From contig CAVPOV010000014.1 in the NCBI GenBank assembly GCA_963707045.1, forward strand, positions 62,643 to 126,642: a DNA stretch of 64,000 bases. The letters are read 5' to 3'. Below the pieces are notes generated by a model. That model was not told where the DNA came from and ran no database searches. It saw nothing but the letters and a program-made list of their open reading frames with translations. Positions 2,236-53,148 of the stretch are shown piece after piece. Numbering within the stretch: the stretch's first letter is position 1; each line of letters begins with the position of its first letter. The position numbers and the translations under genes are program-made. This DNA comes from an uncultured delta proteobacterium (GTDB lineage: Bacteria > Desulfobacterota > Deferrisomatia > Deferrisomatales > JACRMM01).

Positions 2236-5158
2236 CTAGTACAGGTAGCGGAAGGTCACGTACCCCCGGGTACCCCCGTCCTCGTCGAAGCCGTAGGCCA
2301 CCCCTCCGGCGAGCGTCGTGGGCAGGTAGTAGCCGAGCAGCGTGTCCACGCGAAGCTCCGCGCCCACGCCCCTGCGCCACTCGTCGTCGTCGCCGCGCCA
2401 GGCCCGGCCCGCGTCGAAGAACCCCGCCGCGTGCATCCGGCGCAGGAACACGGGCCAGTCCCGGACGCCGCGGAAGGGGCTCCAGAGGGGGAAGCGCACT
2501 TCGGCCGATCCCGCGAACGCCCTCTCCCCCCGGGACACCCGCGCATCGTAGCCGCGCACCGGGAACTCTCCCTCGAGGCCGCCCACCTGGAACAGCGACT
2601 GGAAGGGAACGTCGTCGCCCCAGCCCACGCCGCCCTTCCCCCGCAGGGCGACGACGGTGTGCGTCAGGCCCGGCACCGCGACGTACTCCCGCCACTCGCC
2701 CAGCATCGACTGGGTGTCGAGATCGGCGCCGAGCGCCTCGCTGGTGACCCGGAACCCGGCCTCCAGCCACCGCCCCCCTTCCGGGCCGACCGTGAAGGCG
2801 TTGCGGTGGGGGAAGGACGAGTCGTACCGCGCCGAGAGGGTGAGGGGGTTCCAGGTCCCGTCGAAGACGAGGTCGGCCAGGTCCCGGCGGCCCCGCAGGT
2901 CGTCTCCGACCACGGAGAGGCGGTCCCGCTCCTCCCACGCCCACTCCAGCGCCACGCTCCAGCGCCGCAGCACGCGGGGCAGGTTCTGCCGCACCTCCAG
3001 CCCGATCCCGTGCGTCTCCTCCCAGTAGTCCAGGTCGGACGCCGGGCACGTCGAACAAATCGGCGTAGAGCACGGGCAGGCGCCAGGCCCGCGCCGTCAG
3101 GGTGGGGTAGGTGGTGTCGTTGCGGTAGATGCCCCGGCCGAAGAAGCGCTGGCTGTCCACGGCCCAGTAGCCCGCCGCGAAGTAGGCGTGGCGCTGCAGG
3201 GGGTCGTGGCCCGCGGTCCACACGCCGGGGGCCGGCCCCTGGTTGTCCGCGATGGCGTCCGGAAGCCAGAACGTCGGCCGGAGCCGGTCCTTCCCCGCGT
3301 AGTCCCCGACGGTTCCCGGCGGGGGCGCGGGTGCCGGGGGCTCCCGGGGAGCCGCGACCAGCGGCTCCGGCGAGAGGGGCACGGGATCGGAGAGGGCGTC
3401 GGCCACGTCCAGCACCGACACCGCGAAACCCCCGGCGGAGTAGCTCGTGAAGGCGAGCCTCCCCCCGTCCGGGGACCAGTCCGGCTCGAACGCGCCGCCG
3501 AGAACCCGCGTCAGCCGGCGGCACGCCCCCGTTTCCCCGTCCCACAGGTAGAGGTCGAAGACCCCGGAGCGGTCCCACGCGAAGGCCAGCGAACGCCCGT
3601 CGGGATGCCAGGCGGGGAAGCCCGCCTGGGAGCCCTCCGGCGTCAGGAGGCGGACGTCTCCGCTCGCGACGTCGAGGACGGCCAGCCGCGCGTAGCCCGC
3701 TGTCCGTCTTCCGGGAAAACGCGATCCGCGTCCCGTCCGGCGACCACCGGGGCGTGTCGTAGCGCACGCCGGGCTCCTCGAGCACCACCCGCTCGGCGGT
3801 CCCCCCGGGCGCTTCCGTGAGGACCACCAGCCGGTGTCGCGCCCCCTCGAGCCGGACCGCGGCGAAGGCCCCGGCCGCGTCGCTGTGGTCGGCCTCGAGG
3901 ATCCGCGCCCCCCGCGTCAGGCGGCGGGCCGGGCCGCCCTCGACGCCCACGGCGTAGAGGTCCGTCCGGATGGTCTCCCCCGCGAAGGGCCGGTGGACCT
4001 CGACCCGGGGATAGACGACGTCTCCGGCCCGCAGGGTCGGGCGGGCGGTGGAGCCGGGGCGTTCCGCCAGCCGGCCCTCGGTGCCCGCGGCCAGGTCCCG
4101 GCGCACCAGCGCCGCCTTCACGCCCGTGTCCCTGGTGTAGGCCACCGTGCCGGCGTCGAGCCACAGGGGGCCCCAGGACGAGTAGCCGGGCGACGAGACC
4201 GTCTCGTGCCGGGTCAGCCCCTCCCGGGACAGCCGGTCGATCTCGGGGCGGTACTCCTTCTCCAGGTCGGCGAGCATCCGGCGGTACAGCCCCTGGTAGG
4301 CCTCCCCGGTCGCCCGCGCCGGGGGCCGGTCGATGGCGTAGGGGATGCGGCCCGAGTGGCCCCGCACGAGGTCTCCCAGGGCCCCCGCACCGTGGCGCTC
4401 CTCGACGAGCTGCAGGAGGCGGGCGCCGTAGATGTAGCGCGTCGCGTAGCTCGGCCACGCGGGGAAGTCCCCGCCGAGGCGGTCCAGCGGGGGAACGGCG
4501 CCCTCGGCCACGTCGCACCGGTAGATCATCCGGTACAGCGTCGAGCCCTTGCGGCCGCGGCCCGTGAGGTCGGTCTCCAGGTTCGTGGCGAACCCCTCGT
4601 GGAACCACGGGGGCAGGAAGACGTTCGGCGGTGCGGCGAAGAACCAGAACAGGGCGCCGACCGGGGTGGCCGGGACCCCGACCCGCCCGAAGATCTTCCG
4701 CATCACGGCCGAGTAGCCGCGCACCGGGTCCAGGCCCAGGACGTGCGCGTACTCGTGCACGAAGATGGTCTGAGCCAGCCGTCGTAGTCGCCCACCGTCC
4801 ACAGCATGGGCGGCGGCACGGGGAAGATCCGGATCTGGCTGTACGGGAAGATCGTCGTGTAGCCGTTGCCCAGGTCCGTCCGGTCGACGAGCGTCACCTC
4901 CGTGCGCTGCGCCGGCTCCCAGCCCACGACCTCCACCATGGGCCCGTGGACCTCCTCGGCCGCGCGGGCCAGCACCTCCGCCTGCCCGGACAGCTCCTCC
5001 GGGTAGTGGATGCGGAAGTGCTCCGTCGTGCGCGTCCGCCAGCGCAGGGCCGGGTCGTAGACGGCGGCGCCGCCGACGCCCGGCACCACCTGCGCGAGCA
5101 CCAACAGACCCCACAGCGCGAGCCGGCGTCCTAGCGGCGGAACCCCCGTCTGCCCCAT
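2236..5158 (-). pseudogene. large secreted outer-membrane protein (HExxH peptidase-like region, TolB-like beta-propeller, Omp85/surface-antigen beta-barrel), with 3 frame changes
   Basis: The signal peptide MGQTGVPPLGRRLALWGLLVLAQV starts at 5158. FVHEYAHVLG supplies an HExxH motif. Propeller-type repeats are present (RWSPDGTRIAFS, AWHPDGRSLAF, DWSPDGGRLAF). The C-terminal barrel ends ...GYVTFRYLY with an aromatic terminus. Recognisable sequence hops frame near 4775, 3705 (agcgggctac) and 3040. Confidence 0.65.
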
Positions 5159-5297
5159 TCGTTCTCTCCGGGTGCTGGCGCGAACGTCACGGGGTGCCAG
5201 TCTGACGCGGAACTCGCCCGGGTCAAAGGGCGGAGGCCCCCGGGGCGGCCTTGCGCGGCGGCACGGGGGCCGGAGGCCTCGCCAGGCGGTTTTCCGG

Positions 5298-5337
5298 TTG
5301 ACGCCGATGAATGGGGCCGTTATTGTGCATATGCACA
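5298..5337 (+). promoter_or_regulatory. candidate promoter with an overlapping 14-bp palindromic operator
   Basis: TTGACG (5298-5303), a 17-bp spacer, then TATTGT (5321-5326). The perfect palindrome TGTGCATATGCACA (5324-5337) overlaps the -10. The site is 20 bp upstream of the GGAGGT RBS and ATG of the 5357 gene. Confidence 0.45.
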
Positions 5338-5356
5338 TTAAACAGGAGGTACGACC

Positions 5357-5746
5357 ATGAAGCTCTGCTTTCCCGTGGCGAAGAACGAAGGACTCGACAG
5401 CCAGGTGTTCGGCCATTTCGGCTCGGCCCCGATGTTCGTGGTGGTGGACGCGGAGGCCGGGCGGGTGGCGGAGGTCGTCAACCGCGACCTGCACCACGCC
5501 CACGGCGCGTGCAGCCCCGTGAAGGCGCTGGGCGGGCACGCCGTGGACGCCGTGGTGGTGGGCGGCATCGGGGGCGGTGCGCTCTCGGGGCTCTCGCGGG
5601 CGGGGATCCGCGTGCTCGCGGCGGGCGCGTCGACGGTGAAGGAGAACGTCGCCCTCGCCCGGGAGGGGGCCCTGCGGGAGTGGGAGCCCGGCCGCACCTG
5701 CGGCGGCCACGGTCACGGACACGGCTGCGGCCACCACGGCCCGTGA
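5357..5746 (+). CDS. NifB/NifX-family (dinitrogenase FeMo-cofactor biosynthesis-like) domain protein with His-rich tail
   Basis: MKLCFPVAKNEGLDSQVFGHFGSAPMFVVVDAEAG...VVVGGIGGGALSGLSRAGIRV is the typical pattern of the NifX/NifB-type small domain. The tail is GGHGHGHGCGHHGP. Confidence 0.7.
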   Translation: MKLCFPVAKNEGLDSQVFGHFGSAPMFVVVDAEAGRVAEVVNRDLHHAHGACSPVKALGGHAVDAVVVGGIGGGALSGLSRAGIRVLAAGASTVKENVALAREGALREWEPGRTCGGHGHGHGCGHHGP

Positions 5747-6879: not shown

Positions 6880-8010
6880 ATGAAGGAGATTTCCACCGTC
6901 GGCGTGGTCGGCTTCGGGGTCATGGGCGCGGCGATCGGCCTGAACGCGGCGACGGCCGGGTACCGGGTCGTGTTCAAGGAGCTAAACGACGACCTCGTGA
7001 AGCAGATGTACGACCGCTGGGTCGTCGCCGCGCTCGAGAAGCGCGTCGGCCAGGGGAAGATGACCCGGGCCCAGATGGACGACGTCACCTCGAGGATCAC
7101 CGGGACGAGCCGGTACGAGGGGCTGGCCGGGTGCGACCTCGTGATCGAGGCGGCCGTGGAGAAGATGGACCTCAAGATCCGGATCTTCGAGGACCTCTCG
7201 AAGCACTGCCGGCCCGACGCCATCCTCGTGAGCAACACCTCGACGTTCCTGATCGAGAAGCTCATGGAGCGCGCCACCCACCCCGAGCGGACGGCGGGCC
7301 TGCACTACTTCTTCCCGGCCAACGTCAACCGCCTGGTGGAGGTCATCCGCCAGGAGAAGACGAGCGACGCCACCTACCAGGCCCTGATGAAGTTCGCGGA
7401 GAAGAACCGGAAGACCGCGATCACGGTGCGCGACTTCCCCGGCTTCGCGATCAACCCCATCTTCATCGCGAGCTACATGGTCCTCGACTCCTTCCACGAC
7501 GGCGGGAAATGGAACGTCGCCACCCTGGACGACATCTCCTGCAAGGCCCTCGGGGTGCGGTTCGGGATCATGTGGGTCCAGAACGGCTCCGGCCTGGGCA
7601 CCGCCTACCACGCGGCCGAGTCCATGCACGACTACCTGGCCGACACCGACGTGGGCTACCCGCCGGTGCCGGAGGCGCTGAAGGCGCAGTTCGCGAGCGG
7701 CAAGCCGTGGAACCTGGAGGACGGGCCGGTGCTGGAGGACGCGGCGGCCCGGAACGCCGTGCGGGACCGCCTGCTCGGCGCGATCTTCGCCATCGCGACC
7801 CACCTGATCGAGAAGAAGGTCGTCACCCTCGAGGACCTGGAGCTCGGGGTGTGCACCTCCCTCGCCTGGCCCAAGGGCCCCTTCGCCCTGATGAACGAGA
7901 TGGGGATGGAAGAGGCGGCCCGCCTGGTCCGCCTGGCCGTCGCCGCGGGCGACTTCAAGATGCCGAAGGCCTTCGCCGGCGCGACTCCGGAGGCGTGGAA
8001 GCTGGGGTAG
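6880..8010 (+). CDS. 3-hydroxyacyl-CoA (3-hydroxybutyryl-CoA) dehydrogenase family protein
   Basis: 376-aa clean ORF. The N-terminal Rossmann motif is VGVVGFGVMGAAIGLNAATAGYRV. The family-typical segments NTSTF and HYFFPANVNRLVEV are also present. Confidence 0.85.
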   Translation: MKEISTVGVVGFGVMGAAIGLNAATAGYRVVFKELNDDLVKQMYDRWVVAALEKRVGQGKMTRAQMDDVTSRITGTSRYEGLAGCDLVIEAAVEKMDLKIRIFEDLSKHCRPDAILVSNTSTFLIEKLMERATHPERTAGLHYFFPANVNRLVEVIRQEKTSDATYQALMKFAEKNRKTAITVRDFPGFAINPIFIASYMVLDSFHDGGKWNVATLDDISCKALGVRFGIMWVQNGSGLGTAYHAAESMHDYLADTDVGYPPVPEALKAQFASGKPWNLEDGPVLEDAAARNAVRDRLLGAIFAIATHLIEKKVVTLEDLELGVCTSLAWPKGPFALMNEMGMEEAARLVRLAVAAGDFKMPKAFAGATPEAWKLG

Positions 8011-8208
8011 CCGCCCCTGGCCGTCTCCCTCGGCGGCTAGAACCCGGTCGCGCCCATCATGCCGAGCTCGGCGAGGCACAGGGGGCAGAACCGGACGGCC
8101 TCGGAGCTCCCGGCGCGGGCGGGGAGCGGGAGCCCGGCGGCAGGGTCGCTCTCGGGCGCCGTGTCGTCGTCCAGGTCGGCGTCGCAGCGGTCACAACGGT
8201 TCACGATC
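7886..8208. repeat. 323-bp direct repeat, copy 1 (3' end of the dehydrogenase gene plus a small Zn-ribbon ORF)
   Basis: Aligns base-for-base with 10391-10713 with 8 mismatches and no indels (about 97.5% identity). Confidence 0.9.
8037..8204 (-). CDS. small CxxC...CxxC zinc-ribbon protein (copy 1)
   Basis: VNRCDRCDADLDDDTAPESDPAAGLPLPARAGSSEAVRFCPLCLAELGMMGATGF. It is conserved in the second repeat copy. The GTG start is chosen at the repeat boundary, although the ORF track extends to 8282. Confidence 0.35.
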   Translation of the reverse strand: MNRCDRCDADLDDDTAPESDPAAGLPLPARAGSSEAVRFCPLCLAELGMMGATGF

Positions 8209-8300
8209 TCGACTCTCCGGCGGTGCCCGGCATCGCAAGCCACCGACGCCGGCATCGTCAGGCAACGCTCTCCCGCATCCACGTTTCCCCAGGCCGTCCT

Positions 8301-8665
8301 TAACTTCGCGCAGGGAGCACCACGAAATTCCCGGGATTCAGCTTGCGCTCACCGTCCCAGCGGTAGGCGACCAGGTGGCCACCTTTCGCCACACTGCAGT
8401 CCAGGCAACACGCGTTGGGAGTTTGCAGGACCGGGGGGGGGTATTGAACCAGTAGTGCCCGAAGAACACTGGCGGGGCTTCTGCGGGGTACGGCAAGCGC
8501 GCCGTTACAACACTCTCGGGCAGTGGGATGGACACATGCCCCGCATCACCTAGCCCGAACTCCCCGTAGGTCTTCCCCGCTGGATCATCCCACCAACGGA
8601 TCCGCACCGACGTGCGTCCAGATGTATAGAGACGACCCGGGGGCTTCCCCAAGAACACAAGAAGG
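8301..8665 (-). pseudogene. C-terminal remnant of a metallophosphoesterase (Ap4A-hydrolase/PrpE-like), frameshifted
   Basis: ...VRIRWWDDPAGKTYGEFGLGD...PPVFFGHYWF is followed, after a G9/C9 run at 8433-8441, in another frame by VLQTPNACCLDCSVAKGGHLVAYRWDGERKLNPGNFVVLPARS*. The N-terminal two-thirds of such enzymes are missing. Confidence 0.5.
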
Positions 8666-8813
8666 CAAGGACGTCCGTACCAGCCCTCTCTCGATCTTGC
8701 CCCCGGGGAACTCCCACAGGCCACCCAGGCGAGCGCCCTGACGGCGCTTGGCGATCAGGATCTGCCCGCCACGATCAAGGACGCCGGCCGTTACTCGGAC
8801 CATGAGAACCCTC
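8585..8813 (-). pseudogene. truncated NUDIX (MutT-like) gene fragment
   Basis: MVRVTAGVLDRGGQILIAKRRQGARLGGLWEFPGGKIE then breaks off inside the Nudix box. It is a paralogue of the intact gene at 15653-16063, sharing a 29-bp identical stretch (8691-8719 = 15951-15979). Confidence 0.6.
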
Positions 8814-8972
8814 GCTGAAATCGGCCCTCTCGCGGCTGGTGCTTCCGGAAAACCCCCGAACGGCGACCTGTGCTCTCCACGGGGCGCCGACTGCGGCCTG
8901 CTCGGCCTGGCGTTCGGCGGCTTCTTGGATCGTTGGTCCGTCCCCAAGTGTCCCAAGTGTCTCTTCGAGGGC

Positions 8973-10136
8973 TCATGGCGCCTCCGTGCCTTCGGCGAGA
9001 ACGCCGAGGTACCGGTGGTACACGAAGAGGCGGTTTCGTCGCTTGCCGGTCAGCTCCCGGACGAGTCCGAGCCCCTCTAGGAGTTCCATCGCGGCGGATG
9101 CCGCCGGGAAGGACAGCCCGGTTGTCCGGCAGACCTGGGGCATCGCGAGGATCGGTCGCGCCTTGAGCGCCTCGTGGACCCGAAGGGCCGAGCCCGCCCG
9201 GCGTCCACTCGACTCCACGTTCGCCCGATCCACCCTGAACATCTCGGCCAGGCGCTGAGCCGTGGAGACCGCTCCTTCAGCGGTCCGCCGCACCCCCTCC
9301 AGGAAGAACGTGAGCCACGCTTCCCAATCCCCGGTGCGCCGCACCCGCTCGAGCAGTTCGTAGTACGCAGGCCGGTTCTGCTTCAGGTAGAGGCTCAGGT
9401 ACAGGAGAGGCTCCCGCAGTACGCCGGTCTGGCAGAGCAGGAGCGGGATGAGCAGGCGCCCGACCCGCCCGTTTCCGTCGAGGAAGGGGTGGATCGTCTC
9501 GAACTGGACGTGCGCGAGACCGGCCCGCACCAAGACGGGCAGCCCATCGCCTTCCGCATGAAGAAAGCGCTCGAGCGCCGCCATGCAGTCCGGCACCACC
9601 GTGTGCGGCGGGGGGACGAAGACGGCGTTTCCGGGTCGGGTGCCGCCGATCCAGTTCTGGGATCGACGGAACTCCCCGGGATCCTTCGCGCTGCCGCGCC
9701 GCCGCGAGAGCAGCACGCCGTGGACCTCGCGGATCAGTCGATTGGAGAGAGGAAAGCCTTCCCGCAGGCGGTCCAGCCCGTGCTCCAGCGCCGCGACGCA
9801 GTTCGACACCTCGACCACGTCGTCCAGGGGAACACCCGGGGCCTCGTCCAACTCGAAGAGCAGAAGGTCCGACAGCGACGACTGCGTGCCTTCGATCTGG
9901 GACGACAGCACCGCCTCCTTGCGCACATAGGCGTAAAGGAAGAGCGATTTGTCGGGCAGGAGGGTCGAGACGCCGTCGAGGCGGCCGACGGCGAGCACAG
10001 CGGATTCGAACGTCTGCTGGAGTGCGCCATCGAAGGCCAGCGGTGGCTCCGGCGGAAGGGGGGCCGGCACGAAGGCGCGAACCTCCTCGCCTCCGGCGCT
10101 CGTGACCTCGTACCGGCCGGTCTCCCCACGCTCCAT
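8973..10136 (-). CDS. Fic/DOC-family protein (AMPylase-type) with an N-terminal inhibitory motif and a C-terminal wHTH-like region
   Basis: HPFLDGNGRVGRLL matches the Fic motif HxFx(D/E)GNGRxxR. SSQIEG matches the intramolecular inhibitory motif (S/T)xxxE(G/N). The 387-aa ORF is clean. Confidence 0.9.
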   Translation of the reverse strand: MERGETGRYEVTSAGGEEVRAFVPAPLPPEPPLAFDGALQQTFESAVLAVGRLDGVSTLLPDKSLFLYAYVRKEAVLSSQIEGTQSSLSDLLLFELDEAPGVPLDDVVEVSNCVAALEHGLDRLREGFPLSNRLIREVHGVLLSRRRGSAKDPGEFRRSQNWIGGTRPGNAVFVPPPHTVVPDCMAALERFLHAEGDGLPVLVRAGLAHVQFETIHPFLDGNGRVGRLLIPLLLCQTGVLREPLLYLSLYLKQNRPAYYELLERVRRTGDWEAWLTFFLEGVRRTAEGAVSTAQRLAEMFRVDRANVESSGRRAGSALRVHEALKARPILAMPQVCRTTGLSFPAASAAMELLEGLGLVRELTGKRRNRLFVYHRYLGVLAEGTEAP

Positions 10137-10312
10137 GTCGGTCGGCCCTCCTGTTCAGCGAAGTTGAATAGGGGAGGGGGTTATTAAGACTTCACTAACA
10201 AAGTTTAACTAATGGCCCTCCCGGTGGCAATCGTCTTCGCGCAGCCCTTCGCTTGGGGCCAACTCGGCGGGAGCGACCGCCAGCGCCGGCAGGCCCCGCT
10301 TCGGGACCCAAA

Positions 10313-10382
10313 GGGGACGTAACCGAAATCATGCAATTTGATCCCAGCGCGGTGAGGAATGCGGAATTTCGGTTACGTCCCC
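10313..10382. repeat. 17-bp perfect inverted repeat (hairpin element A)
   Basis: GGGGACGTAACCGAAAT (10313-10329), a 36-nt loop, then ATTTCGGTTACGTCCCC (10366-10382). It ends 8 bp before repeat copy 2. The arm sequence is related to the element at 17782-17861. Confidence 0.7.
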
Positions 10383-10393
10383 CCGTCTCCCCC

Positions 10394-10515
10394 TGATGAA
10401 CGACATGGGGATGGAAGAGGCGGCCCGCCTGGTCCGCCTGGCCGTCGCCGCGGGCGACTTCAAGATGCCGAAGGCGTTCGCCGGCGCGACCCCGGAGGCG
10501 TGGAAGCTGGGGTAG
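10394..10515 (+). pseudogene. orphan 3'-terminal 40 codons of the 3-hydroxyacyl-CoA dehydrogenase gene
   Basis: LMNDMGMEEAARLVRLAVAAGDFKMPKAFAGATPEAWKLG* duplicates the end of the 6880-8010 gene. No upstream coding part is present. Confidence 0.8.
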
Positions 10516-10541
10516 CCGCCCCTGGCCGTCTCCCTCGGCGG

Positions 10542-10709
10542 CTAGAACCCGGTCGCGCCCATCATGCCGAGCTCGGCGAGGCACAGGGGGCAGAACCGGA
10601 CGGCCTCGGAGCTCCCGGCGCGGGCGGGGAGCGGGAGCCCAGGGGCAGGATGGCTCTCGGGCGCCGTGTCGTCGTCCAGGTCGGCGTCGCAGCGGTCACA
10701 ACGGGTCAC
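10542..10709 (-). CDS. small CxxC...CxxC zinc-ribbon protein (copy 2)
   Basis: VTRCDRCDADLDDDTAPESHPAPGLPLPARAGSSEAVRFCPLCLAELGMMGATGF. It has the same length and frame as copy 1. Confidence 0.35.
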   Translation of the reverse strand: MTRCDRCDADLDDDTAPESHPAPGLPLPARAGSSEAVRFCPLCLAELGMMGATGF

Positions 10710-10738
10710 GATCCCCGGTTCTCTCACGGCCTCTTCTC

Positions 10739-11626
10739 TCAGCCCAGTTCCGGGTACGCCCGGGGTGCCACATCCCGACAGCGTTGCTCCAGCTGGTGGG
10801 CGATGCGCTGAATCATAACTTCTGGAAGGCTTGCGCCGCCTCGGGGGTCGGCTAGGAACGCGGGGGTCTTGCCGTTGAACACGGCTGGGCCGTCGGGCGC
10901 CGTCCGCTCCACGTACCACCCCGGCAGGGTCAGGGCGGGCCGCACCGCCACCGGTTCTCCCACCGCGCTCGTGAGCCACTTGCCCAGCCATTCGGCCTGG
11001 CGAATCGCCTGTTCGAGCGGCACGGTCTCTGACCACGTTGGAAAGCCCAGTGTCCGGCCATCGTAGACCACGCGGGCCGAGTCCTTCCCCTTCCCCTTTT
11101 TCGTCCGGGCCTTGGTCTCCACGGCCCACACCCCCGCCGGCCCGACCACGACGTGGTCGATGTTGAAGCGCTCGCCGGGAACGTCATGGAAGACCCGGCA
11201 GCCCCGGAGCATTAACTGGTTCAGCTCCTCCCCGACGGCACGCTCCCCGTCTAGACCCAATCTCAAACGATCCCGTTCGTCTAAGCGTGAAATCAGCCGG
11301 TAGGCGCCTATCACCACTCCACCGATACAGAGCACTCCAGCCAAAATGAGGCGCTCCGCGTTCATCCCACCTCTTGGGTAGAAGAGGACGACGGCTCCAG
11401 AGGTCATCAGCAACGGCCACAGGAGGACTAGGAGCGCTTCGTTCAAGATCTGATCGCCGATTTCCTCAAGGCGGTTCCGGAGGGACTCCCCAGGGCTTCG
11501 CAACAGATCTCTTGTCAAAGGATTCCGGCGCCCAGCGCGTCGAGCACGCCAGCGGCGCAGGTAGACAAGCCCAAGGACCACGGGCATTCCGGAGGGGGCG
11601 AGGAGGAGTTCTGCTGGCACCTGCAT
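10739..11626 (-). CDS. membrane-anchored NERD (nuclease-related domain) protein
   Basis: I took the start at ATG 11626 (MQVPAELLL...). N-terminal hydrophobic helices are followed by GERAVGEELNQLMLRGCRVFHDVPGERFNIDHVVVGPAGVWAVETK, the NERD-domain core pattern. Confidence 0.75.
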   Translation of the reverse strand: MQVPAELLLAPSGMPVVLGLVYLRRWRARRAGRRNPLTRDLLRSPGESLRNRLEEIGDQILNEALLVLLWPLLMTSGAVVLFYPRGGMNAERLILAGVLCIGGVVIGAYRLISRLDERDRLRLGLDGERAVGEELNQLMLRGCRVFHDVPGERFNIDHVVVGPAGVWAVETKARTKKGKGKDSARVVYDGRTLGFPTWSETVPLEQAIRQAEWLGKWLTSAVGEPVAVRPALTLPGWYVERTAPDGPAVFNGKTPAFLADPRGGASLPEVMIQRIAHQLEQRCRDVAPRAYPELG

Positions 11627-11709
11627 TGAAGTCGCCTTCGTAGCGGGAGAGGGCCAGAGGAAGAGCCTACAACCCCTGGCACGACGGGGTTCCGGCTTCC
11701 CCTCAAGGA

Positions 11710-12470: not shown

Positions 12471-15400
12471 CTAACCCGCCACCACCTTCGCCTCCTGGAA
12501 CAACTCGGCCGGCATCGCGGACCGCAGCCGCCACACGATCCGCATAGGCCGCTCGCCCTCGTGGCGAACGTAGGAGACCGGCCCGAGGAACCGATAGGGC
12601 ATCGTCTCCCCTCGGCCGTCCTTCTTCCTCTGCCGCACGAACAGGAGGACGTGGCTGCCCTCCCTCTCGTGGTTCACGTAGCGGCGGCCCGTGGGCGAGT
12701 CGGCCCGGGTCACGCTCTGCGACTCCCAGTGGAACTCCGTGGGAGAGATCGGGTAGTCGTCGTAGCGCGTCGTCGCCGAGTACTCCTTTTCGGACTTCTC
12801 GAGGGTCACGAAGAGGAGGTCCGACCGGGTGGCCTGGTCGTAGTGGACCCCCTGCTGCATCTGTAGAAGCCGTCCATTGGCCGTGACGCCGAACGCGGCC
12901 AGGATCTCGTAGAGGGCGTAGGTGCCGTGCACCTGGAGCGGGACGGGCTGGCCGAGGTCGAGGGGGTAGACGGCCGAGCGGCTCCGGTCGGCCAGCACCG
13001 CCAGAAGCTCCCGAAACTCGGCGCGCATCGCCGGCTCGGCCCAGAGCTCGGCCAGCGCGTCCCCGAGCTCCGCGACCGATCGCGCGCGGTGTCCCAGGGC
13101 GGCGAAGAGCATGAGCTGGAGGCGGCCTTCGAGGGTCTCGGGGGGCCTCGGCTCGGGCGGCTGGTCGCCGGAGACCCACTCCTGCCAGGTGCCCAGGCGC
13201 AGGGGATCGTCCAGGTGGAGCAGCCGGCCGAACGCCTTGGCCAGCCCTCCCTCGTTCGGTCCCGCGGCGGCCTCGGGGAGCCCGGCCGCCCTGCGGAGCG
13301 CGGACCACGAGTTGGTCGCCGCGGACCGCGGGTAGATCTCCTCCAGCTCCACGCCGGCCTGAGACAGGAAGGCGGCGAGGTCCACGTCCCCGAGGCTCCG
13401 CAGGTCCTCCACCAGGGCCGCCCGGCCGAGCGCGGAGCGCGTCCTTCACGTTGGCCAGCACGGCCTCGCCGGGACAGACGGTCGAGTTGCAGGGAGCAGC
13501 CCGGGCGGGAGGAACGGGAACTCGGCCTCCACCTGCTTCGCGAAGTCCCGCCGCGTGCCGCCGAGGATTGCCCGGTACTTGAGGTCGAAGCGGAACTGGC
13601 GGTGCGCGTTGCCGATGAAGTCGAGGACCGAGAAGCGACCCCTTGCCCTGCGGCCAGCCGGAGCCCGCGCCCCAGCTGCTGGAGGAAGACCGTGGCGCTC
13701 TCCGTCGGGCGCAGGAAGAGGACCGTGTCGACCTCGGGCAGGTCCACGCCCTCGTTGAAGAGATCGACGGCGAAGACCACGCTGGACCCGCCGCTCGCGC
13801 AGGTCGCCGGAGGGCCGTTCCGGCGCTCGTCGCCCGGCGTGCCGCCGTGAATCGCCACGGCGGCCACGCCGGCCTCGGCGAAGCGGCGCGCCATGAAGAC
13901 CGCGTGGTCCACACCCGCGCAGAAACCCGAGCGCCCGCATCCTGGCCGGGTCGGCGACCCGGGCCTTCACCTCCTGGAGGATCCGCGCGGCGCGGCTGTG
14001 GTGGCCGGTGTAGAGCCTCTCGAGCTCCGCCAGATCGTACCGGCCCCGCGTCCAGCGATGCCCGAGAGGTCGGTCCCGTCGTGGACGCCGAAGTAGTGGA
14101 ACGGGCACAGGAGCCCCTGGTCCAGCGCCTTCCAGAGCCGCAGGTCCGCCGCCACGCGGCCTTCGAACCACTGGAGCACGTCCTGGCCGTCGGTGCGTTC
14201 CGGGGTGGCGGTCAGCCCCAGGAGCACCCTGCGGCGGAGAGCGTCCGCAGGAGCGCGTCGTAGCTCGGCGCCGCGGCGTGGTGGAACTCGTCGACGATCA
14301 CCACCTCGTAGGCGTCGGGTCGGAGCCCTGCGAGGCGCTCGGCGCGCAGCGACTGGATCGACGCGAAGACGTGGCGGCCCGCCTCGGGCCGATGCGCCGT
14401 CCACCAGGAGCTCGCCGAAGCTGCCGTCACCCAGGACCACCTGGAAGACCGCCCGGCTCTGCTCGAGGATCTCCTTCCGGTGGGCCACGAAGAGGAGGCT
14501 CGCCTCGCCCCGCTCGCGCCGCAGGCGCGCGTAGTCGAAGGCCGCGACCCAGGTCTTGCCGGTGCCGGTCGCGGCCACGACCAGGTTCTTCCAGTGCCCG
14601 CCGCTGCCGCTCGGCGTCGAGCCGCTCGAGGATCTCCTGCTGGTGCGCCTTGGGCGCCACCTCGAGTCGGCAGCTCGATGGCCGCGGTGCGCCCCTCCCC
14701 CGTCTGCCGCCGGAGCGCCCGTTCGAGCCGGTCGCCGTCCGCCTCGGGGTCGTAGGGCTGAAACTCCGCCTCGGCCCAGTACTGGTCGAACACGGCGCGG
14801 AACCGCGCCACGATGCCCGAGTTGTCGGTCTCGCTCGCGCGGACGTTCCACTCGAGCCCGTCCACGCAGGGCCGCACGGGAGAGGTTCGACGAGCCGATG
14901 TAGGCGGTGGAGAAGCCCCTCGGTCGCGGTGGAAGAGCCAGGCCTTGGCGTGAAGTCGGGTCTGATCGGTCTCGTAGGACACCTTGATCCGCGCCCCGAG
15001 GCGGCACAGCTCGTCGAGGGCCCGGCGCTGGGTGGCGCCGGTGTAGACCGTGGTGAGGACCCGAAGCTCTCGGCCCGAGCGCAGGAACTCCGCCAAAGCG
15101 TCCCGGATCACCAGGAACCCGGTCCAGCGGACGAAAGCGCAGAGGAGGTCGACCCGCTGGGCGCTCGCCAGCTCGCTCGCCACCGCGCGGCCGATCCCCT
15201 GGTCCCGGTGGCCGTTCACGAGGAGGACGCTCGACCGAAGCGGGATCACCGGACGCGCCGGTGGCTGGTTCGCACCCAGGTCCCCGGACGGCCTCACCAA
15301 GTGGAGCAGCAGGCGGCCGGGCTCGTCGACCGCGTCGCCCTCGACCACCGGGTAGGCCGTGGAGTCCTTCAGGAAGTCGAGCAGTCGGTTGGCGAGTCCG

Positions 15401-15660
15401 ATCTGCGCCGCTACCTGTTCCGTGCCCTCGCCTGGGAGGGAGCGAAGCGCGCCGAAGAGATGCCGCCCCACGTAGCGGGCCAGGACCTCGGGCGCCCCCT
15501 CGCCGTCGAGATCGCGACGGCCCGCGCCCCAGCCGCGGGCTTCGAGGCGGACCAGCGCCTCCCCGAGCTCTCGGGTCACGAGGTCCTCGTAGAGCCCCGG
15601 CAGAAGCTCGCGGCCACCGTGCCCCTCTCCGGCGCCCCCCCGCCGTCTGCCGTCACCCAC
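12471..15660 (-). pseudogene. PLD-family (NgoFVII-like) nuclease, SF2 DEAD/DEAH helicase and DUF3427 fusion, with multiple frame changes in the helicase core
   Basis: The N-terminal 245 aa are clean and carry the HKD motif RLHAKAWLFH plus YIGSSNLSRAAL. Helicase motifs VVAATGTGKTWVAA, VIVDEFHH and LGLTATPER lie scattered over three frames (about 13.4-14.9 kb). The C-terminal 313 aa are clean and end ...HWESQSVTRADSPTGRRYVNH...LLFVR...YRFLGPV (DUF3427 pattern). Confidence 0.8.
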
Positions 15661-16063
15661 CCTGCGCCGCCTTCTGCTGAGAAGAAGTCTCTTGCAGAAA
15701 CGCCACCGTGGGCAGGTCCGCGGGCGCGAACTCGTACGCCCCCATCTCCTCCGGCCGCACCCACCGCACCTCGTCGTGGTCCCGCAGCTCGAATTCCCCG
15801 GCGACGTGAACGGCCCGGTAGCTCAGGAGCTCGATCGAAAGGTGGGGGTAGTGGTGGACGTGCGACACCAGAAACTCGCCGATCTCAGCCCCGATGCCGA
15901 ACTCCTCGTGAAGCTCCCGAGCCAGGCAGTCCCGTGGGTCCTCCCCGTCCTCGATCTTGCCCCCGGGGAACTCCCACAGACCCGCGAGGCGGTGGTGTTC
16001 CCTCCGCTTGGCGATCAAGATTCTCCCGGCCCTCTCCATGACGGCGGCAGTGACTCGGATCAA
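15653..16063 (-). CDS. NUDIX hydrolase (MutT/8-oxo-dGTP diphosphatase family)
   Basis: GLWEFPGGKIEDGEDPRDCLARELHEEFGI is a complete Nudix box GX5EX7REUXEEXGU. The 3' end overlaps the start of the downstream PLD-helicase gene by 8 nt. Confidence 0.85.
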   Translation of the reverse strand: MIRVTAAVMERAGRILIAKRREHHRLAGLWEFPGGKIEDGEDPRDCLARELHEEFGIGAEIGEFLVSHVHHYPHLSIELLSYRAVHVAGEFELRDHDEVRWVRPEEMGAYEFAPADLPTVAFLQETSSQQKAAQGG

Positions 16064-17781: not shown

Positions 17782-17861
17782 GGGGACGCAACTGAAATCA
17801 ACACATTCCTCCTCCCGGGCAACCGAGGGGAGGGACGACGCGAGGGGGAAGTTGCGTCCCC
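17782..17861. repeat. 12-bp inverted repeat (hairpin element B), related to element A
   Basis: GGGGACGCAACT (17782-17793), a 56-nt loop, then AGTTGCGTCCCC (17850-17861). The first 20 nt GGGGACGCAACTGAAATCAA versus GGGGACGTAACCGAAATCAT in element A differ at 3 positions. Confidence 0.65.
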
Positions 17862-17866
17862 GTTGA

Positions 17867-18380
17867 CTACTCACTTCTCTCCTGCACGCTCCCCAGAACC
17901 ACCGCCCACCCCGTGGCGATCCACCGCGTCGACCCCTTCGGCGTCCCGTCGAGATAGCGCAGTCGGTTCACCAGCCCCTCGTCGAGCACCGCGCCGGTAC
18001 CGGCGGAGCGTTCGCTCGCGGCCAGCACCCAGGCGATGTCGGTGAGGCTCACGGTGCGCTCGGCTAAGCCGCCCTCGCCCCCGTCGATCCGGACCCTCCC
18101 CCTTGAGCTGGTCCGACGATGCGGCAGCGTCGGTCGCCGCTTCCGACCCAGCCGCCTGGGCCCGGGTCTGCCAGCACCTGCGCCACCAGTTCCCGCGCCT
18201 TCTCGTCCCAACGTCCCACGCCCAGGTACCGCCACGGTTCCCCGGGTCCGCTTCGCCCGAGCACGAAGGAGGTCTCTCCCGGGTGCCCCTGGGTCGCGGC
18301 CAGAGTCACGCAGTCGGGGTGGAGAGAGATCCCTCGCCTTCGAGCAGGAAAAGAGGTGACCGTCCACCCGGGACCACGGC
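17867..18380 (-). pseudogene. degraded ORF of unknown function
   Basis: Two minus frames each carry protein-like sequence: ...GETSFVLGRSGPGEPWRYLGVGRWDEKARELVAQVLA and ...RVRIDGGEGGLAERTVSLTDIAWVLAASERSAGTGAVLDEGLVNRLRYLDGTPKGSTRWIATGW. No family was recognised, and part of it is repeated at 19256-19329. Confidence 0.3.
17991..18064. repeat. 74-bp direct repeat, copy 1
   Basis: Matches 19256-19329 with 5 mismatches. It encodes ..AERTVSLTDIAWVLAASER..GTGA on the minus strand in both copies. Confidence 0.8.
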
Positions 18381-18430: not shown

Positions 18431-18823
18431 TCACACGGCGTCGTCCAGCAGCCGCGCCACGCGGCCCAAGAGTTGGCGCAGTTGGCCGACGGCCACTTCG
18501 CGGTCCAGCGGCGGTTCCTCCTCTTCGAGTGCCTGGTAACGGAACTGAACCCCGAAGGGGTTGTACTCCACCAGGTCCCATAGCGCTTCGACTTCGACGC
18601 CGTGTCCCTGGAGCACCGTGATGAGGGTGGCGAGATTGTGGGTCAGGGGGTATTCCTGGCCGAGCGCCGCGATCCAGGCCTTCAAGGCCTTCCCAGCGGC
18701 CTGCTGCGCGTGGAATCCGAACACCTCATCCGCGAACACCTCCGCGTCGCTCATTCCGCCCAGTGCCCGCAGGTCCTTCTCGGCCATCGCGAGCAGGGCC
18801 GCTGCATTCTCTCGCTCGCTCAT
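18431..18823 (-). CDS. HEPN domain protein (pair 1)
   Basis: MSERENAAALLAMAEKDLRAL...FGFHAQQAAGKALKAWI...NPFGVQFRYQ is the typical small HEPN protein partnered with a minimal nucleotidyltransferase. Confidence 0.8.
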   Translation of the reverse strand: MSERENAAALLAMAEKDLRALGGMSDAEVFADEVFGFHAQQAAGKALKAWIAALGQEYPLTHNLATLITVLQGHGVEVEALWDLVEYNPFGVQFRYQALEEEEPPLDREVAVGQLRQLLGRVARLLDDAV

Positions 18824-19148
18824 AGAGGACCCTGCCTTCCCGAAGCGCATGCGCCACCACGTGATTTCGGGTGTTTGCCCAGTGCTCGGCTTCTTCGGCG
18901 GTGTAGACGAGGATGTCCTGGGAAACCGGGAACCGCGCGAGGGCGCGCGACAGCCTAGCCATCTCCCGCCGCCGGCTGCGGCCCGGGCCGAAGGGCTTGT
19001 CCTCGATGACGAGGAAATCCACGTCCGACGCCGGCCCAGCCGCGCCTCTGGCGTGAGACCCGAAGAGGACGATCTTCCGAGGTTTCGCCTCACGGACGAG
19101 GATCTCGGTCATTTCCTCGACGAGCCTCTCGACGGCCTGAGCGGTCAT
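18726..19148 (-). CDS. minimal nucleotidyltransferase (MNT/NTase-fold, pair 1)
   Basis: KIVLFGSHARGAAGPASDVDFLV matches the NTase motif GS-x9-12-DxD. The ORF tail overlaps the HEPN gene by 98 nt in another frame. Confidence 0.8.
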   Translation of the reverse strand: MTAQAVERLVEEMTEILVREAKPRKIVLFGSHARGAAGPASDVDFLVIEDKPFGPGRSRRREMARLSRALARFPVSQDILVYTAEEAEHWANTRNHVVAHALREGRVLYERARECSGPARDGREGPAGTGRNERRGGVRG

Positions 19149-19255: not shown

Positions 19256-19329
19256 GCGCCGGTCCCGGCGGCCCGTTCGCTCGCGGCGAGCACCCAGGCG
19301 ATGTCGGTGAGGCTCACGGTGCGCTCCGC
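19256..19329. repeat. 74-bp direct repeat, copy 2
   Basis: See 17991-18064. Confidence 0.8.
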
Positions 19330-19445: not shown

Positions 19446-22400
19446 TCACGGTGAGGCGAGCTTGCGGCCGCAGTTGGGGCAGGTCTCGGCGCCCGGGCGG
19501 AGGTGCCCGAGGCAGTGGGAGCAGTGGGAGGATACGGTCCGGCGCACGCCGGCCACCCCGATGACCGGGCCGGGGCGCTTCTTCGGTTGGCTCCCGGCGG
19601 CGGGTCGGGTCTCGGCGTGCCCGGCGCTGTGGCCCCGGCCCGCGCCGGCGAAGGCGGCGAAGGCGGGCGCCCCTGCCCGGGCGTAGAAGTCGAAGCCGGC
19701 GCCTTCCTCCGTCCAGTCCTCCTCCATCAGGTATTCGCCGCTGTCCTCTGCCTCGGTTTCGGAGCGCCGGACTCGTGCCACCCACGCGGGGGCGCCTTCG
19801 TCCAACCGGGCCTGCACGCGGGAACGGAGGCCGACGAGCTCCTCCTGGAGCCCGGGGGTCTTCGCCCGCAGCTCGTTCAGGGCCCGCTCCAGCGTCTCCG
19901 GGGGCGGGACGCCGTCGACCAAGGCGTCGGGACCCAGGGCGGCGCAGACGGAGATCCGTCGGTCGGCCTTGGCGAGCCGGGCCTTCTGCTCCGCCCAGCG
20001 CCCCTCCTCTCCGGACAGCGCCGCGCGTTCCTCCTCCCACGCGGACCGGCGCTCCTGCAGCCGGGCTTCGCTCTCCCGGAGGCCGGCCTCCTCGGCCGCG
20101 AGCTTGGACCGTTCCTCGCCGAGGCGGAGCTTCTCTTCCGCGATCCGTCCCGCCTCCCGCTCCATGTCCGAGGACTCCTGGGCGAGGCGCCGGGCCCACG
20201 CATCCAGGTCGGCGTTCTCCCGGGCGAGGGCGCCGTCTTCGGCGGCGAGCCGCTCCACCTCGGCGGCCAGGGCACGGTGCGCCCGCTCCCACGCCTCCAC
20301 CTCCCCGGCCAGGTGCGCCTCCTGCCCGGCGAGGTCGCCGGCCGCCGCGGCCAGGTCGTCTCGGATCGCCGCCCAATCCGTCTGGGCTCGGGCCAGCTCC
20401 GCGGCCTCCCGGTGGTGCTCCTGCTCCGCCTCCCGCAGCGAGCCCGCCCGCAGCTCGAGCCGCGCGTCGTCCTCCTCGATCCGGGCCTGCTCGGCCGCGA
20501 TCCGCTGGCGGTGGTCGGCCAGGGTCGCGGCGGCTCTGGCGAGCTGCTCCCGCCCGTCCGCCACGCGGGCCCTGCCCTTCTCGATCCGGTCCCGCTCTTC
20601 GGCCAGCCGGGCTTCGAACCGCTCCAGCCGGGCGGCCTCCGCCCGCCGTTCCTCCCGGACGACTCCCAGGCGGGCCTCGTCTTCCGCGAGGCGGGCCAGC
20701 TCCCCGTCCAGGCCTTCCAGCTCCGCGGCCAGCGCGGCCCGCTTCGCGCCGAGGCCGGCCCTCGACTCCTCGAGGAGGGCCTGGCTTCGCTGCCACGCCG
20801 CCCGCTGCGCCGCGAGGTCGGCGTCCGCGGCGGCCAACCCCTCTTCCCACGTCGCCAGCCGGAGCCTCTCGGCGGCGATGGCTTCCTCCTCCGCCGCGCG
20901 CTCGGAGCGGACGGTGGCCGCGAACGCTTCGTCCTCCCGCAGCGCCTGCTCCCGGGCCGCCAGCGCGTCCGCGTCCGCCCGCAGCCCGGTCTCCGCCGCG
21001 GTCAGCGCGGCCCGCTCGGCCCGGAGGTCCGCCTGCTCCGCCGCCAACGCGTCCCGCGCCCCCCCGGCGGCTTCCCGTTCCGATCCCCGCTTCCGCTCCT
21101 CCTTGAGAGATGCCGCTGTTTCGTCGAGACCTCTCTTCTCCGTCGCGAAGGAGCGCCGCTCCTGCTGCAGGCTTTTCCTCTGGCCCTGCAGGTCGCGCTC
21201 CTTTCCCAGGAGCGCCTCCCGCGCCGCGGCCGACTCGGCCGCTCTCCGGGCAAGCGTCTCCCGCTCTTCCCCGAGCCGGGCCTGCTCCCCTTCCCGCACC
21301 GCCGGGTCCTGCGCCTCGCTCCCCCCGGCGAGGGCCCTCTCCTCCTTGGAGAGCTTCTTCCGCGCCCTCCCGAGCGCCCCCTTCGCTCCGGAGAGCTTCT
21401 TCTTCTCCTGGGCGAGCACTTCCGCCTCGCCTTCGCACGCCTGGAGCGCCCGGGTGTTCGCCCGCCTTCGCCGCGCGAGGTCCTTGCGGGCCGCCGCCAG
21501 TTCCCTCTCGGCCCGATCCAGCTCCTCGGGCGTCCGGACCGGAGCGGCGGCCAGGGCTTCGAGCTCGCCCCGGCGGCGGGCGAGGGCGGCCGACTGCTCC
21601 TCCCAGCGACGCATCCTCTCCGCCAGGGCGTCCTCCGCCTGCCGCAGCGCCTCCCGCTCCCCGGCCAGGAGCTCTCGGCTCTCGGCCAGCGCCGTCTCCC
21701 GCGCTTCCACCCGGGCCGCCCAGGTCCTCGCCCCGGCTTCCCGGGCGGCGAGGCCGGCTTTATCCCTCTCGAGCCGCCCGCGGTCGGCGGCGAGCTCTTC
21801 TCCGCGGCGCTGGTTGTCGCGGCCCCGCTCGTCCAGGTCTGCTTCCTCCGCGGCGGCCCGGCTGGCTTCCGCTTCGAGCCCTGCCCGCGCCTCGACGCGG
21901 CAGGCCCGCCGCCCCTCGACCTCCTCCCGGGCGGATGCCAGGGCCCCACTCTCGTCCGCCAGGGCGCGCTCGGCTTCGCGGTGAGCGGCCAGGTCCCGCT
22001 CGAACTCGGCCCGGTCCGCGGACAGTGCCCCTTCCCGCTCCCGAAGGGCGGCCTCCCACTCCTTCACCTTCTGCACGCCCGCGTCGTACTTCTCGGTGTG
22101 ACCGGCCGTGGCGTGCCGGCGCTCGGCGAGTCGGTCCCGTTCCCCCGCCAGCCGGGCCCTCGCCTCCTCCAGCGCGGCCGCCTGCGCCGCCAGGTCCCGG
22201 CTCCGTCGCCCGTGGGCCTCGCGGCGGCCCGCGAGCGCCGCCCCGCTCTCGGAATGCTCCTTCTCCCGCCGACCGACGACCCGTCTCCCGTCCCCCAGCT
22301 CTTCCTGCCGGCGTCCCAGGACCCCGCGGGCGGCGGTCAGCTTCTCCTGTCGCACCGCCGCCGTCTGCCGGCCCTCGACCTGCGCGGCCGCCCCGCGCGC

Positions 22401-23360: not shown

Positions 23361-23429
23361 GATGCCACCTGCGCGTCCGGTTCCAACTCCTCGCGCGGTC
23401 ACGCCCACGGATACGCCGGACGGACCGCC

Positions 23430-24225: not shown

Positions 24226-26673
<2,448 letters not shown>

Positions 26674-26684
<11 letters not shown>

Positions 26685-27759
26685 GGAGGATCTGTCCCTT
26701 CTGGATGCGGAAATCCGCTCGTTCTTCGCCCCGGGGCAGGGGAACCGCCTCGGGGTCCGTCACCGCCACCAGGACCTGACCGGACCACCGGGCGAGGAAG
26801 TCGCCGAGGTAGCCGAGCCTCCGGCTGTCGAGCTCCGAGCCGGGGTCGTCGAGGAGGAAGACGGGCTCCTCCCCGAGTTGGTCGCGCCCCCAGAGCAGGA
26901 GGCCGAGCTTGAGGCTCAGCGCCAGGGTCCGCAGCTGGCCCTGGGACGCGTGGCTCTCCACCGGCCGACCGCCGATGCGCACGCGGAGCGCGTCGCGGTG
27001 GGGCCCCACCGTGGTGAAGCCCAGCCGCCGGTCGGTCTCGCGGGCCTCGGCCAGGGCTTCCCGAAAAGCTTCGAGGTCCCCCGGATCCCCCGGCCCGGAC
27101 GGATCGTAGGCCAGCCGGACCTCGTCGTTTCCCCCCGAGATGTCGCCGTGGATGGCGGCCACGGCCGGCGCCACCCCCGCAAGGGTCGCCCCCCGCGCCG
27201 CGCGCACCCGTATGGCGGCGCCGCACAGCGTCTCGTCCCACACGTCGAGACTGGAGGGGTCGCCCCGGAGCGCGAAGTTCCTCTGCCGCAACGCCCTAGT
27301 ATACTCCCGAAGGGCCCCCAGGTGGGAGGCGTCGCGGACGAAGGACGCCCGGTCCAGGTAGCGGCGGCGCTGGTCCTGGCTCCCCCTGGCGAGGTCGAGG
27401 TCCGCCGGGCTGAACAGGACGGTCTGGAAGTGGGCGAGATACTGGGCCGTGCTCTCGGGGACCTTGTCGTCGACCCAGGCGGTGCGCCCTTGCCCGTCGA
27501 GGGCGACCCGGAGGTCCACCTCTCCCTCTCGGCCGACCACCCGCCCCTTCAGGAGGGCGTTCTCTCCCCCGGCCTCGATCAGGTCCCGCGGTCGCCGCGT
27601 GCGGAAGCTCTGCAGGTTCGAGAGCAGGTGGACCGCCTCGATGAGGTTCGTCTTTCCCTGGGCGTTCTCCCCGTGGAAGACCGAGAAGCGGCGCGCCGTC
27701 TCGATCTGGGCCTCCTGCAGGTTGCGGAACCCCCGGACTCCGATCCGCAGGAGCCTCAT
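26674..27759 (-). CDS. recF: DNA replication and repair protein RecF
   Basis: [15 protein letters not shown]...[15 protein letters not shown] carries the Walker A. The SMC-like signature [15 protein letters not shown] and the Walker [12 protein letters not shown] are present. The gene sits between dnaN and gyrB. Confidence 0.95.
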
Positions 27760-49681: not shown

Positions 49682-49695
49682 AACGGAGGTGACGC

Positions 49696-49950
49696 ATGGC
49701 CGTCGAAATCTCGGGAGCCGACATCATACGCGCCGCGGCGCTGCTCGGGGCGGGCATCGCCATGGGCTTCGGGGCCATCGGGCCGGGGGTGGGCGAGGGC
49801 TTCGCCGCGGGAAAGGCGTGCGAGGGCATCGCCCGCGCGCCGGAGCACGCGAACCTGCTGACGAGGACGATGCTCGTGGGCCAGGCCGTGGCCGAATCCA
49901 CGGGCATCTACTCCCTGGTCATCGCGCTGCTCCTGATCTTCGTGGTGTGA
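49696..49950 (+). CDS. atpE: F0F1 ATP synthase subunit c (single hairpin)
   Basis: GGAGGT RBS. The sequence is [84 protein letters not shown]. Confidence 0.95.
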
Positions 49951-51604: not shown

Positions 51605-51622
51605 CCAAGGGGTGACTAGACG

Positions 51623-53148
<1,526 letters not shown>

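Follow-up and report, generated by a model that had tools for sequence, protein, structure and literature searches.

The window analysed here is a 64-kb stretch of DNA from an uncultured delta proteobacterium of the Deferrisomatales (contig CAVPOV010000014.1, positions 62,643 to 126,642). Near its left end, two near-identical 323-bp direct repeats, each of which includes the 3' end of the 3-hydroxyacyl-CoA dehydrogenase gene (hbd), bracket a 2.2-kb islet that carries a Fic gene of the SoFic type. By codon usage the repeat is native DNA, and each copy borders, on its right, DNA of foreign composition; the repeat separates two foreign blocks that make up the left portion of a ~17-kb defence and toxin island. 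The history we tentatively favour, at somewhat short of an even chance, is that two different islands occupied one site in sister genomes and were later stacked by homologous recombination. The duplicated segment probably marks how the two islands were stacked, not the cut site of an integrase. The feature is of a known type, a decayed accessory islet between direct repeats within a defence island, and represents a new example rather than a new kind of element.

Realignment of the two copies, 7886-8208 (copy A) and 10391-10713 (copy B), gave a gapless alignment of 323 nt with eight mismatches, corresponding to 97.5% identity at an offset of 2505 nt. Each copy was found to comprise the last 40 codons of hbd, a 26-bp spacer (8011-8036 in copy A) and a complete 55-codon open reading frame (ORF) on the opposite strand, referred to here as the CxxC gene for its CxxC...CxxC pattern. 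Both the geometry and the content agree with what the original prediction had read from the sequence. In the numbering of copy A, the mismatches fall at 7899, 7971, 7986, 8136, 8138, 8145, 8147 and 8200; the copies are equal in length and differ by substitutions only, and looser identity reaches a few nucleotides past each edge (7883-8210). A repeat search of the whole window and a sensitive blastn search identified this pair as the sole long near-identical repeat in the 64 kb and found no third or partial copy there, which excludes chance as its origin. Four of the eight mismatches are clustered at 8136-8147, where two codon changes 9 nt apart show the same pattern (on the minus strand, GAC to CAT and GCC to CCT, with the first and third codon positions altered). 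This suggests a single templated multi-nucleotide event rather than four separate substitutions.

Composition distinguished the repeat from the DNA beside it. The GC content at third codon positions (GC3) of native genes was 0.91-0.99, including hbd at 0.99, the CxxC gene at 0.95 (copy A) and 0.91 (copy B), and dnaA at 0.94; dnaA, dnaN and mnmG ranged from 0.94 to 0.96. Accessory genes gave 0.72 for a metallophosphoesterase remnant, 0.79 for a NUDIX remnant, 0.85 for Fic and 0.75 for a NERD-domain gene. Overall GC content was 73.7% in the repeat, 66.5% in the islet and 64.9% in the NERD gene. The right boundary is identical in both copies: the first foreign nucleotide has the same position in each, 4-6 nt upstream of the start codon of the CxxC gene, whose GTG sits 4 nt within the repeat. 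Copy A is followed on the right by the metallophosphoesterase remnant, a MutT remnant, the SoFic gene and a hairpin (H1), and copy B by the NERD gene, beyond which come a type IV restriction enzyme and other genes. Because foreign DNA starts at the same nucleotide in both copies, two different foreign blocks are joined to one hbd-CxxC point, which points to the 5' edge of the CxxC gene, rather than hbd, as the reused insertion point. At the left boundary, copy A is continuous with hbd, whereas copy B begins mid-gene, 8 nt past H1; no convincing microhomology was found at this left junction of copy B.

Stacking of two islands would have proceeded as follows. Closely related genomes, ~2.5% apart, would have held different islands just 5' of the CxxC gene, and one island would have moved into the other genome along with 323 bp of adjacent native DNA. 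It may have been fixed by Campbell-type integration of a circle, through a single crossover in the shared 323 bp, or by homologous crossover at one end combined with an illegitimate join beside H1 at the other. In the outcome, copy A keeps hbd intact, and copy B leaves behind NERD a second CxxC gene and a displaced hbd 3' fragment that is not translated. Such a history would account for the identical right boundaries and for the arbitrary mid-gene left boundary beside a strong hairpin. It would also account for a native repeat between foreign blocks, the missing recombinase and the strain-level divergence of the copies. Campbell-type integration and homology-facilitated illegitimate recombination are comparable in that they duplicate a shared segment or stack donor beside recipient DNA without a dedicated recombinase, and the islet junction likewise falls at a hairpin. 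They are, however, known mainly from laboratory constructs and transformation, whereas the events proposed here are deduced from sequence.

Comparison with relatives of hbd bears on when the two copies separated. Homologues of hbd were equal in length, the best being 91% identical in a protein search. The nearest matches in contig scans were 86% (genome contigs) and 77% (metagenome contigs) identical; the nearest public relative was a Deferrisomatales metagenome-assembled genome with an 86% identical hbd, and exact look-ups of hbd and Fic returned no match. In four hbd relatives, three of them at 89-92% nucleotide identity, all resemblance to the window breaks off at the hbd stop codon (8008-8010 in the window), so that they provide no empty site for comparison. 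Their contigs (L001, L161-L163) have only hbd in common with the window, and a nitroreductase-like gene lies downstream of hbd in those that reach far enough. The CxxC gene, Fic and NERD were absent from the hbd locus of these closest relatives. Both copies share derived states relative to the outgroups; each is therefore the closest relative of the other, and their divergence is more recent than the split from the 89-92% identical relatives. Copy A carries the outgroup state at all three differing hbd sites (7899, 7971 and 7986), where copy B is derived, one of the changes being E to D. At CxxC codon 20 (8147 and 8145), copy B matches the CxxC homologues and copy A is derived. With derived changes split between A and B, each copy has acquired changes of its own after the separation.

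The CxxC ORF is a genuine gene with hardly any relatives. An exhaustive profile search across 1.8 billion representative proteins, together with a word-indexed search, returned only two homologues, both distant (52-56% identity) and both conserving the two Cys pairs and a C-terminal LCLAELxMMGA. A public collection contains a CxxC cluster with two members, one of 61 aa that matches copy B and one of 72 aa, seen on a contig of 178,344 bp. The public call for copy B is the 61-aa version, from a GTG at 10727, 11 nt past the NERD stop; the 72-aa member (P0244) fits, by length alone, a version of copy A starting from an ATG at 8255. The CxxC gene as a conserved neighbour of hbd was rejected: its only two homologues adjoin unrelated genes, and no CxxC homologue was present in the 80 hbd loci of the genome-contig scan. 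Since the two genes are unlinked in homologues and relatives, their adjacency is lineage-specific. The repeat is not a conserved attachment region.

Several points weigh against the stacking of two islands. Neither an empty site nor a sister genome carrying just one of the islands was retrieved, the best hbd relatives being 86-92% identical and non-syntenic on both sides; the two-genome history is accordingly read from composition and boundaries alone. The polarity of changes is based on 3 + 2 sites only, and an integrase may once have been present and then lost. In addition, the junctions are known from the assembly consensus alone, and the assembly contains clustered frameshifts. No fewer than six frame changes are needed to read the gyrB gene (24700-26700, minus strand). 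Also split are the type IV restriction enzyme (12471-15660, minus), a BamA/Omp85-like gene (2236-5737, minus) and atpA (51620-52399, plus); hbd, Fic, dnaA, dnaN, recF, yidC, mnmE and mnmG are intact. Because the broken genes look like clustered assembly indel errors, pseudogenes in the window are not to be taken at face value.

Whatever its history, a 323-bp repeat at 97.5% identity is a good substrate for RecA, and the islet is thus deletable as a 2505-bp circle, or amplifiable. Deletion would leave a single CxxC gene and an hbd end that is chimeric but intact. As the islet has no recombinase, its loss or amplification today could proceed only through RecA-type recombination. Excision or amplification by homologous recombination between the repeats, originally offered as a fallback, is sound given this length and identity. 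The coordinates of the repeat, the islet and the associated features are listed in Table 1.

Table 1. Features of the repeat-flanked islet and of the sequences associated with it (window coordinates).
Feature	Coordinates	Strand	Description
hbd, 3-hydroxyacyl-CoA dehydrogenase	6880..8010	+	Intact, 376 aa; Pfam 3HCDH_N + 3HCDH
Direct repeat copy A	7886..8208	.	hbd 3' end + 26-bp spacer + complete CxxC-A
CxxC-A	8037..8204	-	55-codon zinc-ribbon-like CxxC...CxxC gene; GTG start 8204, stop 8037-8039; GC3 0.95
Islet	8209..10390	.	2182 bp; 66.5% GC vs 73.7% in repeat
Metallophosphoesterase remnant	8300..8607	-	C-terminal ~100 aa only; tblastn, frame analysis
MutT-type NUDIX remnant	8690..8803	-	First 38-40 residues only; Pfam NUDIX_4 + NUDIX
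Fic AMPylase, SoFic type	8973..10136	-	Intact, 387 aa; Pfam Fic_N + Fic
Sigma-70-like promoter	10202..10230	-	TTGCCA-17-TAAACT; upstream of Fic; inside block conserved with L164 and L165
Hairpin H1	10313..10382	.	70 nt, 17-bp perfect arms (GGGGACGTAACCGAAAT), -25.6 kcal/mol, z = -4.2
Direct repeat copy B	10391..10713	.	Displaced hbd pseudo-3' end (10391-10515) + spacer + complete CxxC-B
CxxC-B	10542..10709	-	Second copy; 3 aa differences from CxxC-A; GC3 0.91
NERD-domain gene	10739..11629	-	Immediately right of copy B; GC3 0.75, foreign-like
Hairpin H2	17782..17861	.	Related to H1 via shared 5' end GGGGACGYAACYGAAATCA

Integration of e14 or phage 21 in the icd gene of Escherichia coli, leaving an icdC pseudo-3' end, was reportedly described by Hill et al. 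in 1989, and a footprint of this type is the alternative that survives best, although we consider it unlikely. An integrase-bearing element would have targeted the 3' part of hbd and brought a surrogate hbd end together with the CxxC gene; with later loss of the integrase and most genes, it would have become a remnant flanked by attL and attR. This would fit direct repeats that contain a gene 3' end and bracket foreign DNA, a full-length hbd and the truncated genes of the islet, which are consistent with decay. There is precedent in e14, which is flanked by icd and icdC in E. coli (PMC13626634). There too, a repeat of the gene 3' end flanks the insert, one copy completing the gene and the other being a displaced fragment, and when the two recombine, the insert is lost and the gene is left chimeric but intact. 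The remnant would resemble a cis-mobilizable element (CIME), a decayed integrative and conjugative element (ICE) or integrative and mobilizable element (IME) that keeps attL and attR, defined as att-flanked without integration genes (PMC5704250). Like a CIME, the islet is short, has no integration or transfer genes, is bounded by direct repeats at a gene end and stands in tandem with further accessory DNA.

The differences from both systems are nevertheless considerable. Whereas e14 spans 15 kb, encodes its own integrase and excises site-specifically (PMC13626634), the islet spans 2.2 kb and has no recombinase, every stretch of 8209-10390 being accounted for. Integrase, resolvase and transposase domains were likewise not found in the defence island, and neither an integrase nor an excisionase was found in the scan of ~50 window ORFs, which did not include every small ORF; within that scope, the earlier statement that the window lacks an integrase is borne out. 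The repeat runs 198 bp past hbd through the whole of an unrelated second gene and ends at its start. The copy fused to hbd is ancestral at three of three differing hbd sites, which is the opposite of what a surrogate end would lead one to expect. None of the four hbd relatives has an element or att-like remnant at the hbd end, and accretion predicts a third repeat copy where none was found. Compared with a CIME (PMC5704250), the repeats are only putative att sites, consisting of 323 bp of ordinary coding DNA, no cognate ICE or IME and no third att copy was found, the latter within the window, and plasmid and phage collections matched only Fic or nothing. The integration footprint proposed in the original prediction thus retains the repeats around foreign DNA, the intact hbd and the mobile, decayed cargo. 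It lacks a recombinase, runs against the polarity of the hbd sites and does not account for a repeat that continues through a second gene to its start codon. Its further proposal that the island carried its own copy of the attachment region is not supported, 198 of the 323 bp being a lineage-specific small gene. The islet as a stranded remnant holds insofar as it is decayed, with truncated genes; stranding after site-specific integration is unsupported.

Intragenomic copy-and-paste is an improbable account of the repeat. Here the foreign block from 8209 to beyond NERD would once have been uninterrupted and H1 would have served NERD as its 3' hairpin; replicative template switching or repair at the hairpin would then have inserted a 323-bp copy of the upstream hbd-CxxC segment between the NERD stop and H1. 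Without copy B, H1 would sit 33 nt past the NERD stop, much as H2 sits 5 nt past the stop of its gene, and both flanks of copy B are compositionally foreign. The leader of copy A is closer to the leaders of the CxxC homologues than that of copy B, agreeing with L167 at 14 of 20 positions against 8 of 20, a weak comparison counted by hand from the alignment. This account gives no reason for the copied segment to stop precisely where native DNA meets foreign DNA, by the CxxC start. Moreover, neither junction shows clear microhomology, and for the copies to have diverged by 2.5%, with changes in each, the event must be old.

It is also quite unlikely that the repeat is an assembly artefact, in which alternative islands of two co-existing strains were placed in series and their shared flank was duplicated. 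Broken genes amid intact neighbours (gyrB, the type IV restriction enzyme, the BamA-like gene and atpA) suggest a noisy, possibly mixed-strain consensus, and 2.5% divergence is typical of strain-level variation. In contrast, the copies are equal in length with substitutions only, and the junction at 10390/10391 has no sequence in common with the hbd context that could give a false overlap. Simple concatenation of alleles does not predict that copy B starts mid-hbd, and the two-member CxxC cluster on the public contig also argues against an artefact. Target-site duplication by a transposon or insertion sequence was dismissed, as 2-14 bp is expected where 323 bp is duplicated and neither terminal inverted repeats at 8209 and 10390 nor a transposase were found in the islet. 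A tandem duplication of the entire 2505-bp unit, with the second islet lost afterwards, was also set aside, since it needs a precise replacement at the repeat boundary.

The cargo of the islet was characterized by domain, frame and folding analyses, which agree with the originally predicted content of a Fic gene, two gene remnants and a hairpin. The Fic protein carries the catalytic motif HPFLDGNGRVGR at 9456-9491 and the N-terminal inhibitory motif SSQIEG at 9888-9905. It matched the PADLOC SoFic model at 3.4e-115 over its full length (model positions 5-359 of 361); against the NCBIfam model ProtAdlyltaseSoFic it scored 138.9 bits and did not reach the equivalog cut-off of 550. A 61-codon arginine-rich ORF (8791-8976, minus strand) follows the gene, its ATG overlapping the Fic stop codon (ATGA). 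In E. coli Sofic, the antitoxin AS1 is reported at the position directly downstream of the Fic gene. The 61-codon ORF is broken by a 94-bp indel (8858-8951) relative to contig L164, described below, and is therefore probably not conserved. SoFic is a single-gene anti-phage defence (PADLOC SoFic; PMC12249575), with which the islet Fic shares the full-length model match, the Fic_N and Fic domains, the HPFxxGNGRxxR motif (HPFx[DE]GNGRxxR) and the inhibitory [ST]xxxE[GN]. It differs in its equivalog score and in that no conserved AS1-like downstream gene was seen at the islet. By these sequence features, the islet Fic is a candidate SoFic-type anti-phage defence gene.

The Fic protein is unusually conserved. 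More than 8000 homologues were found at E <= 1e-60, and the 120 best listed were 81-97% identical and nearly all 383-395 aa long; the phyla among the best-listed homologues included Thermodesulfobacteriota, Planctomycetota, Methylomirabilota, Eisenbacteria and others. A 1.7-kb contig from an unrelated metagenome (L164) showed 94% DNA identity from 10284 down to 8952 and 86% identity over 8857-8737, the start of the NUDIX remnant after the Fic cassette; its homology ends at 10284, short of H1. Elsewhere, DNA homology to Fic ends within ~100 nt upstream and ~5 nt downstream of the gene. The contexts of homologues include the inside of a type I restriction-modification operon (L165) and a position beside a MutY-like gene (L166), and homologues also occur on plasmids and on 80 viral or prophage contigs. 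When the islet itself was compared with plasmids, only the Fic gene matched (65-71% identity), and the phage collection gave no match. By these comparisons and by its GC3, the cargo is foreign DNA of a typical mobile kind.

The islet is decayed. The metallophosphoesterase remnant contains one frame change, in a G9 run at 8433-8441, and was identified solely through tblastn hits to plasmid genes annotated as metallophosphoesterase (42-49% identity, E to 4e-17), with no match in Pfam, NCBIfam or PDB. Matches of the NUDIX remnant to NCBIfam MutT models were restricted to model positions ~3-45. A second NUDIX gene lies at 15950-16062, between the type IV restriction enzyme and an HNH endonuclease, and the remnant is 75% identical to it over 113 nt.

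The two hairpins are 7.4 kb apart and share an oriented 5' end, GGGGACGYAACYGAAATCA; H2 ends 5 nt past the stop of an ORF at 17867-18367 (minus strand). No further H1 or H2 copies were found in the window, in 160 scanned loci or in viral contigs, and H1 had no match in Rfam. On contig L164, the 3' end of H2 (GTTGCGTCC-N2-GTTGACT) occurs twice in a ~60-nt tandem repeat (positions 90-200), which sits upstream of a 97%-identical Fic gene. Integron attC sites were considered for both hairpins and rejected: by inspection, the boxes ACGYAAC...GTTRCGT are each one off RYYYAAC...GTTRRRY, the stem of H1 is perfect without extrahelical bases, there are two copies only and no intI was found.

The window as a whole represents the replication-origin region of a ~71% GC genome. 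The genes dnaA, dnaN, recF and gyrB lie at 24.7-30.5 kb, and yidC, mnmE, mnmG, parB and ATP synthase genes lie further right. The ~17-kb interval from hbd to gyrB is the defence and toxin island, beside dnaA-dnaN-recF. Its genes include the SoFic-type Fic, NERD, a type IV methyl-directed restriction enzyme (PLD-helicase-DUF3427), a HIT gene, an HNH endonuclease that binds phosphorothioated DNA (PT-DNA) and toxin-antitoxin-type pairs of HEPN and MNT (minimal nucleotidyltransferase) genes. A 74-nt direct repeat (17991-18064 and 19256-19329, 93% identical) encodes ERTVSLTDIAWVLAASER within two small minus-strand ORFs that flank a HEPN gene at 18431-19093; these small ORFs, assigned to no family, are probably paralogous antitoxin-like genes. 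Also inside the island is a 1320-aa ORF (19446-23408, minus strand) with a native-like GC3 of 0.91, no Pfam match and strongly negative GC skew and AT skew along the entire gene. The sole transposase-like ORF (30792-31991, minus strand, 399 aa) has helix-turn-helix domains only (HTH_29/28/23/32) and stands directly beside dnaA. In the ATP synthase region (48974-49943), three diverged copies (64-70%) of a 209-nt unit are possibly tandem c-subunit genes.

We also considered, as a speculation of low probability, that the nucleotide just 5' of the CxxC gene, possibly with H1 and H2, serves as a docking point that can be reused without an integrase, within a defence island close to the replication origin. 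Cassettes such as SoFic would then travel between strains with a native-flank 'handle' and enter or leave as small circles via homologous recombination. If this were true, the 323-bp repeat would be a working part of a cassette-exchange system and not a scar. The importance of the islet is otherwise modest and it opens no new question; it is a clean example of a single-gene SoFic in a decayed, repeat-flanked islet near a replication origin. For the organism, the duplicated native flank lets a defence gene be lost or amplified without a dedicated recombinase, and if the insertion point is reused in sister strains, the locus would provide a small test case for the exchange of defence-island content.

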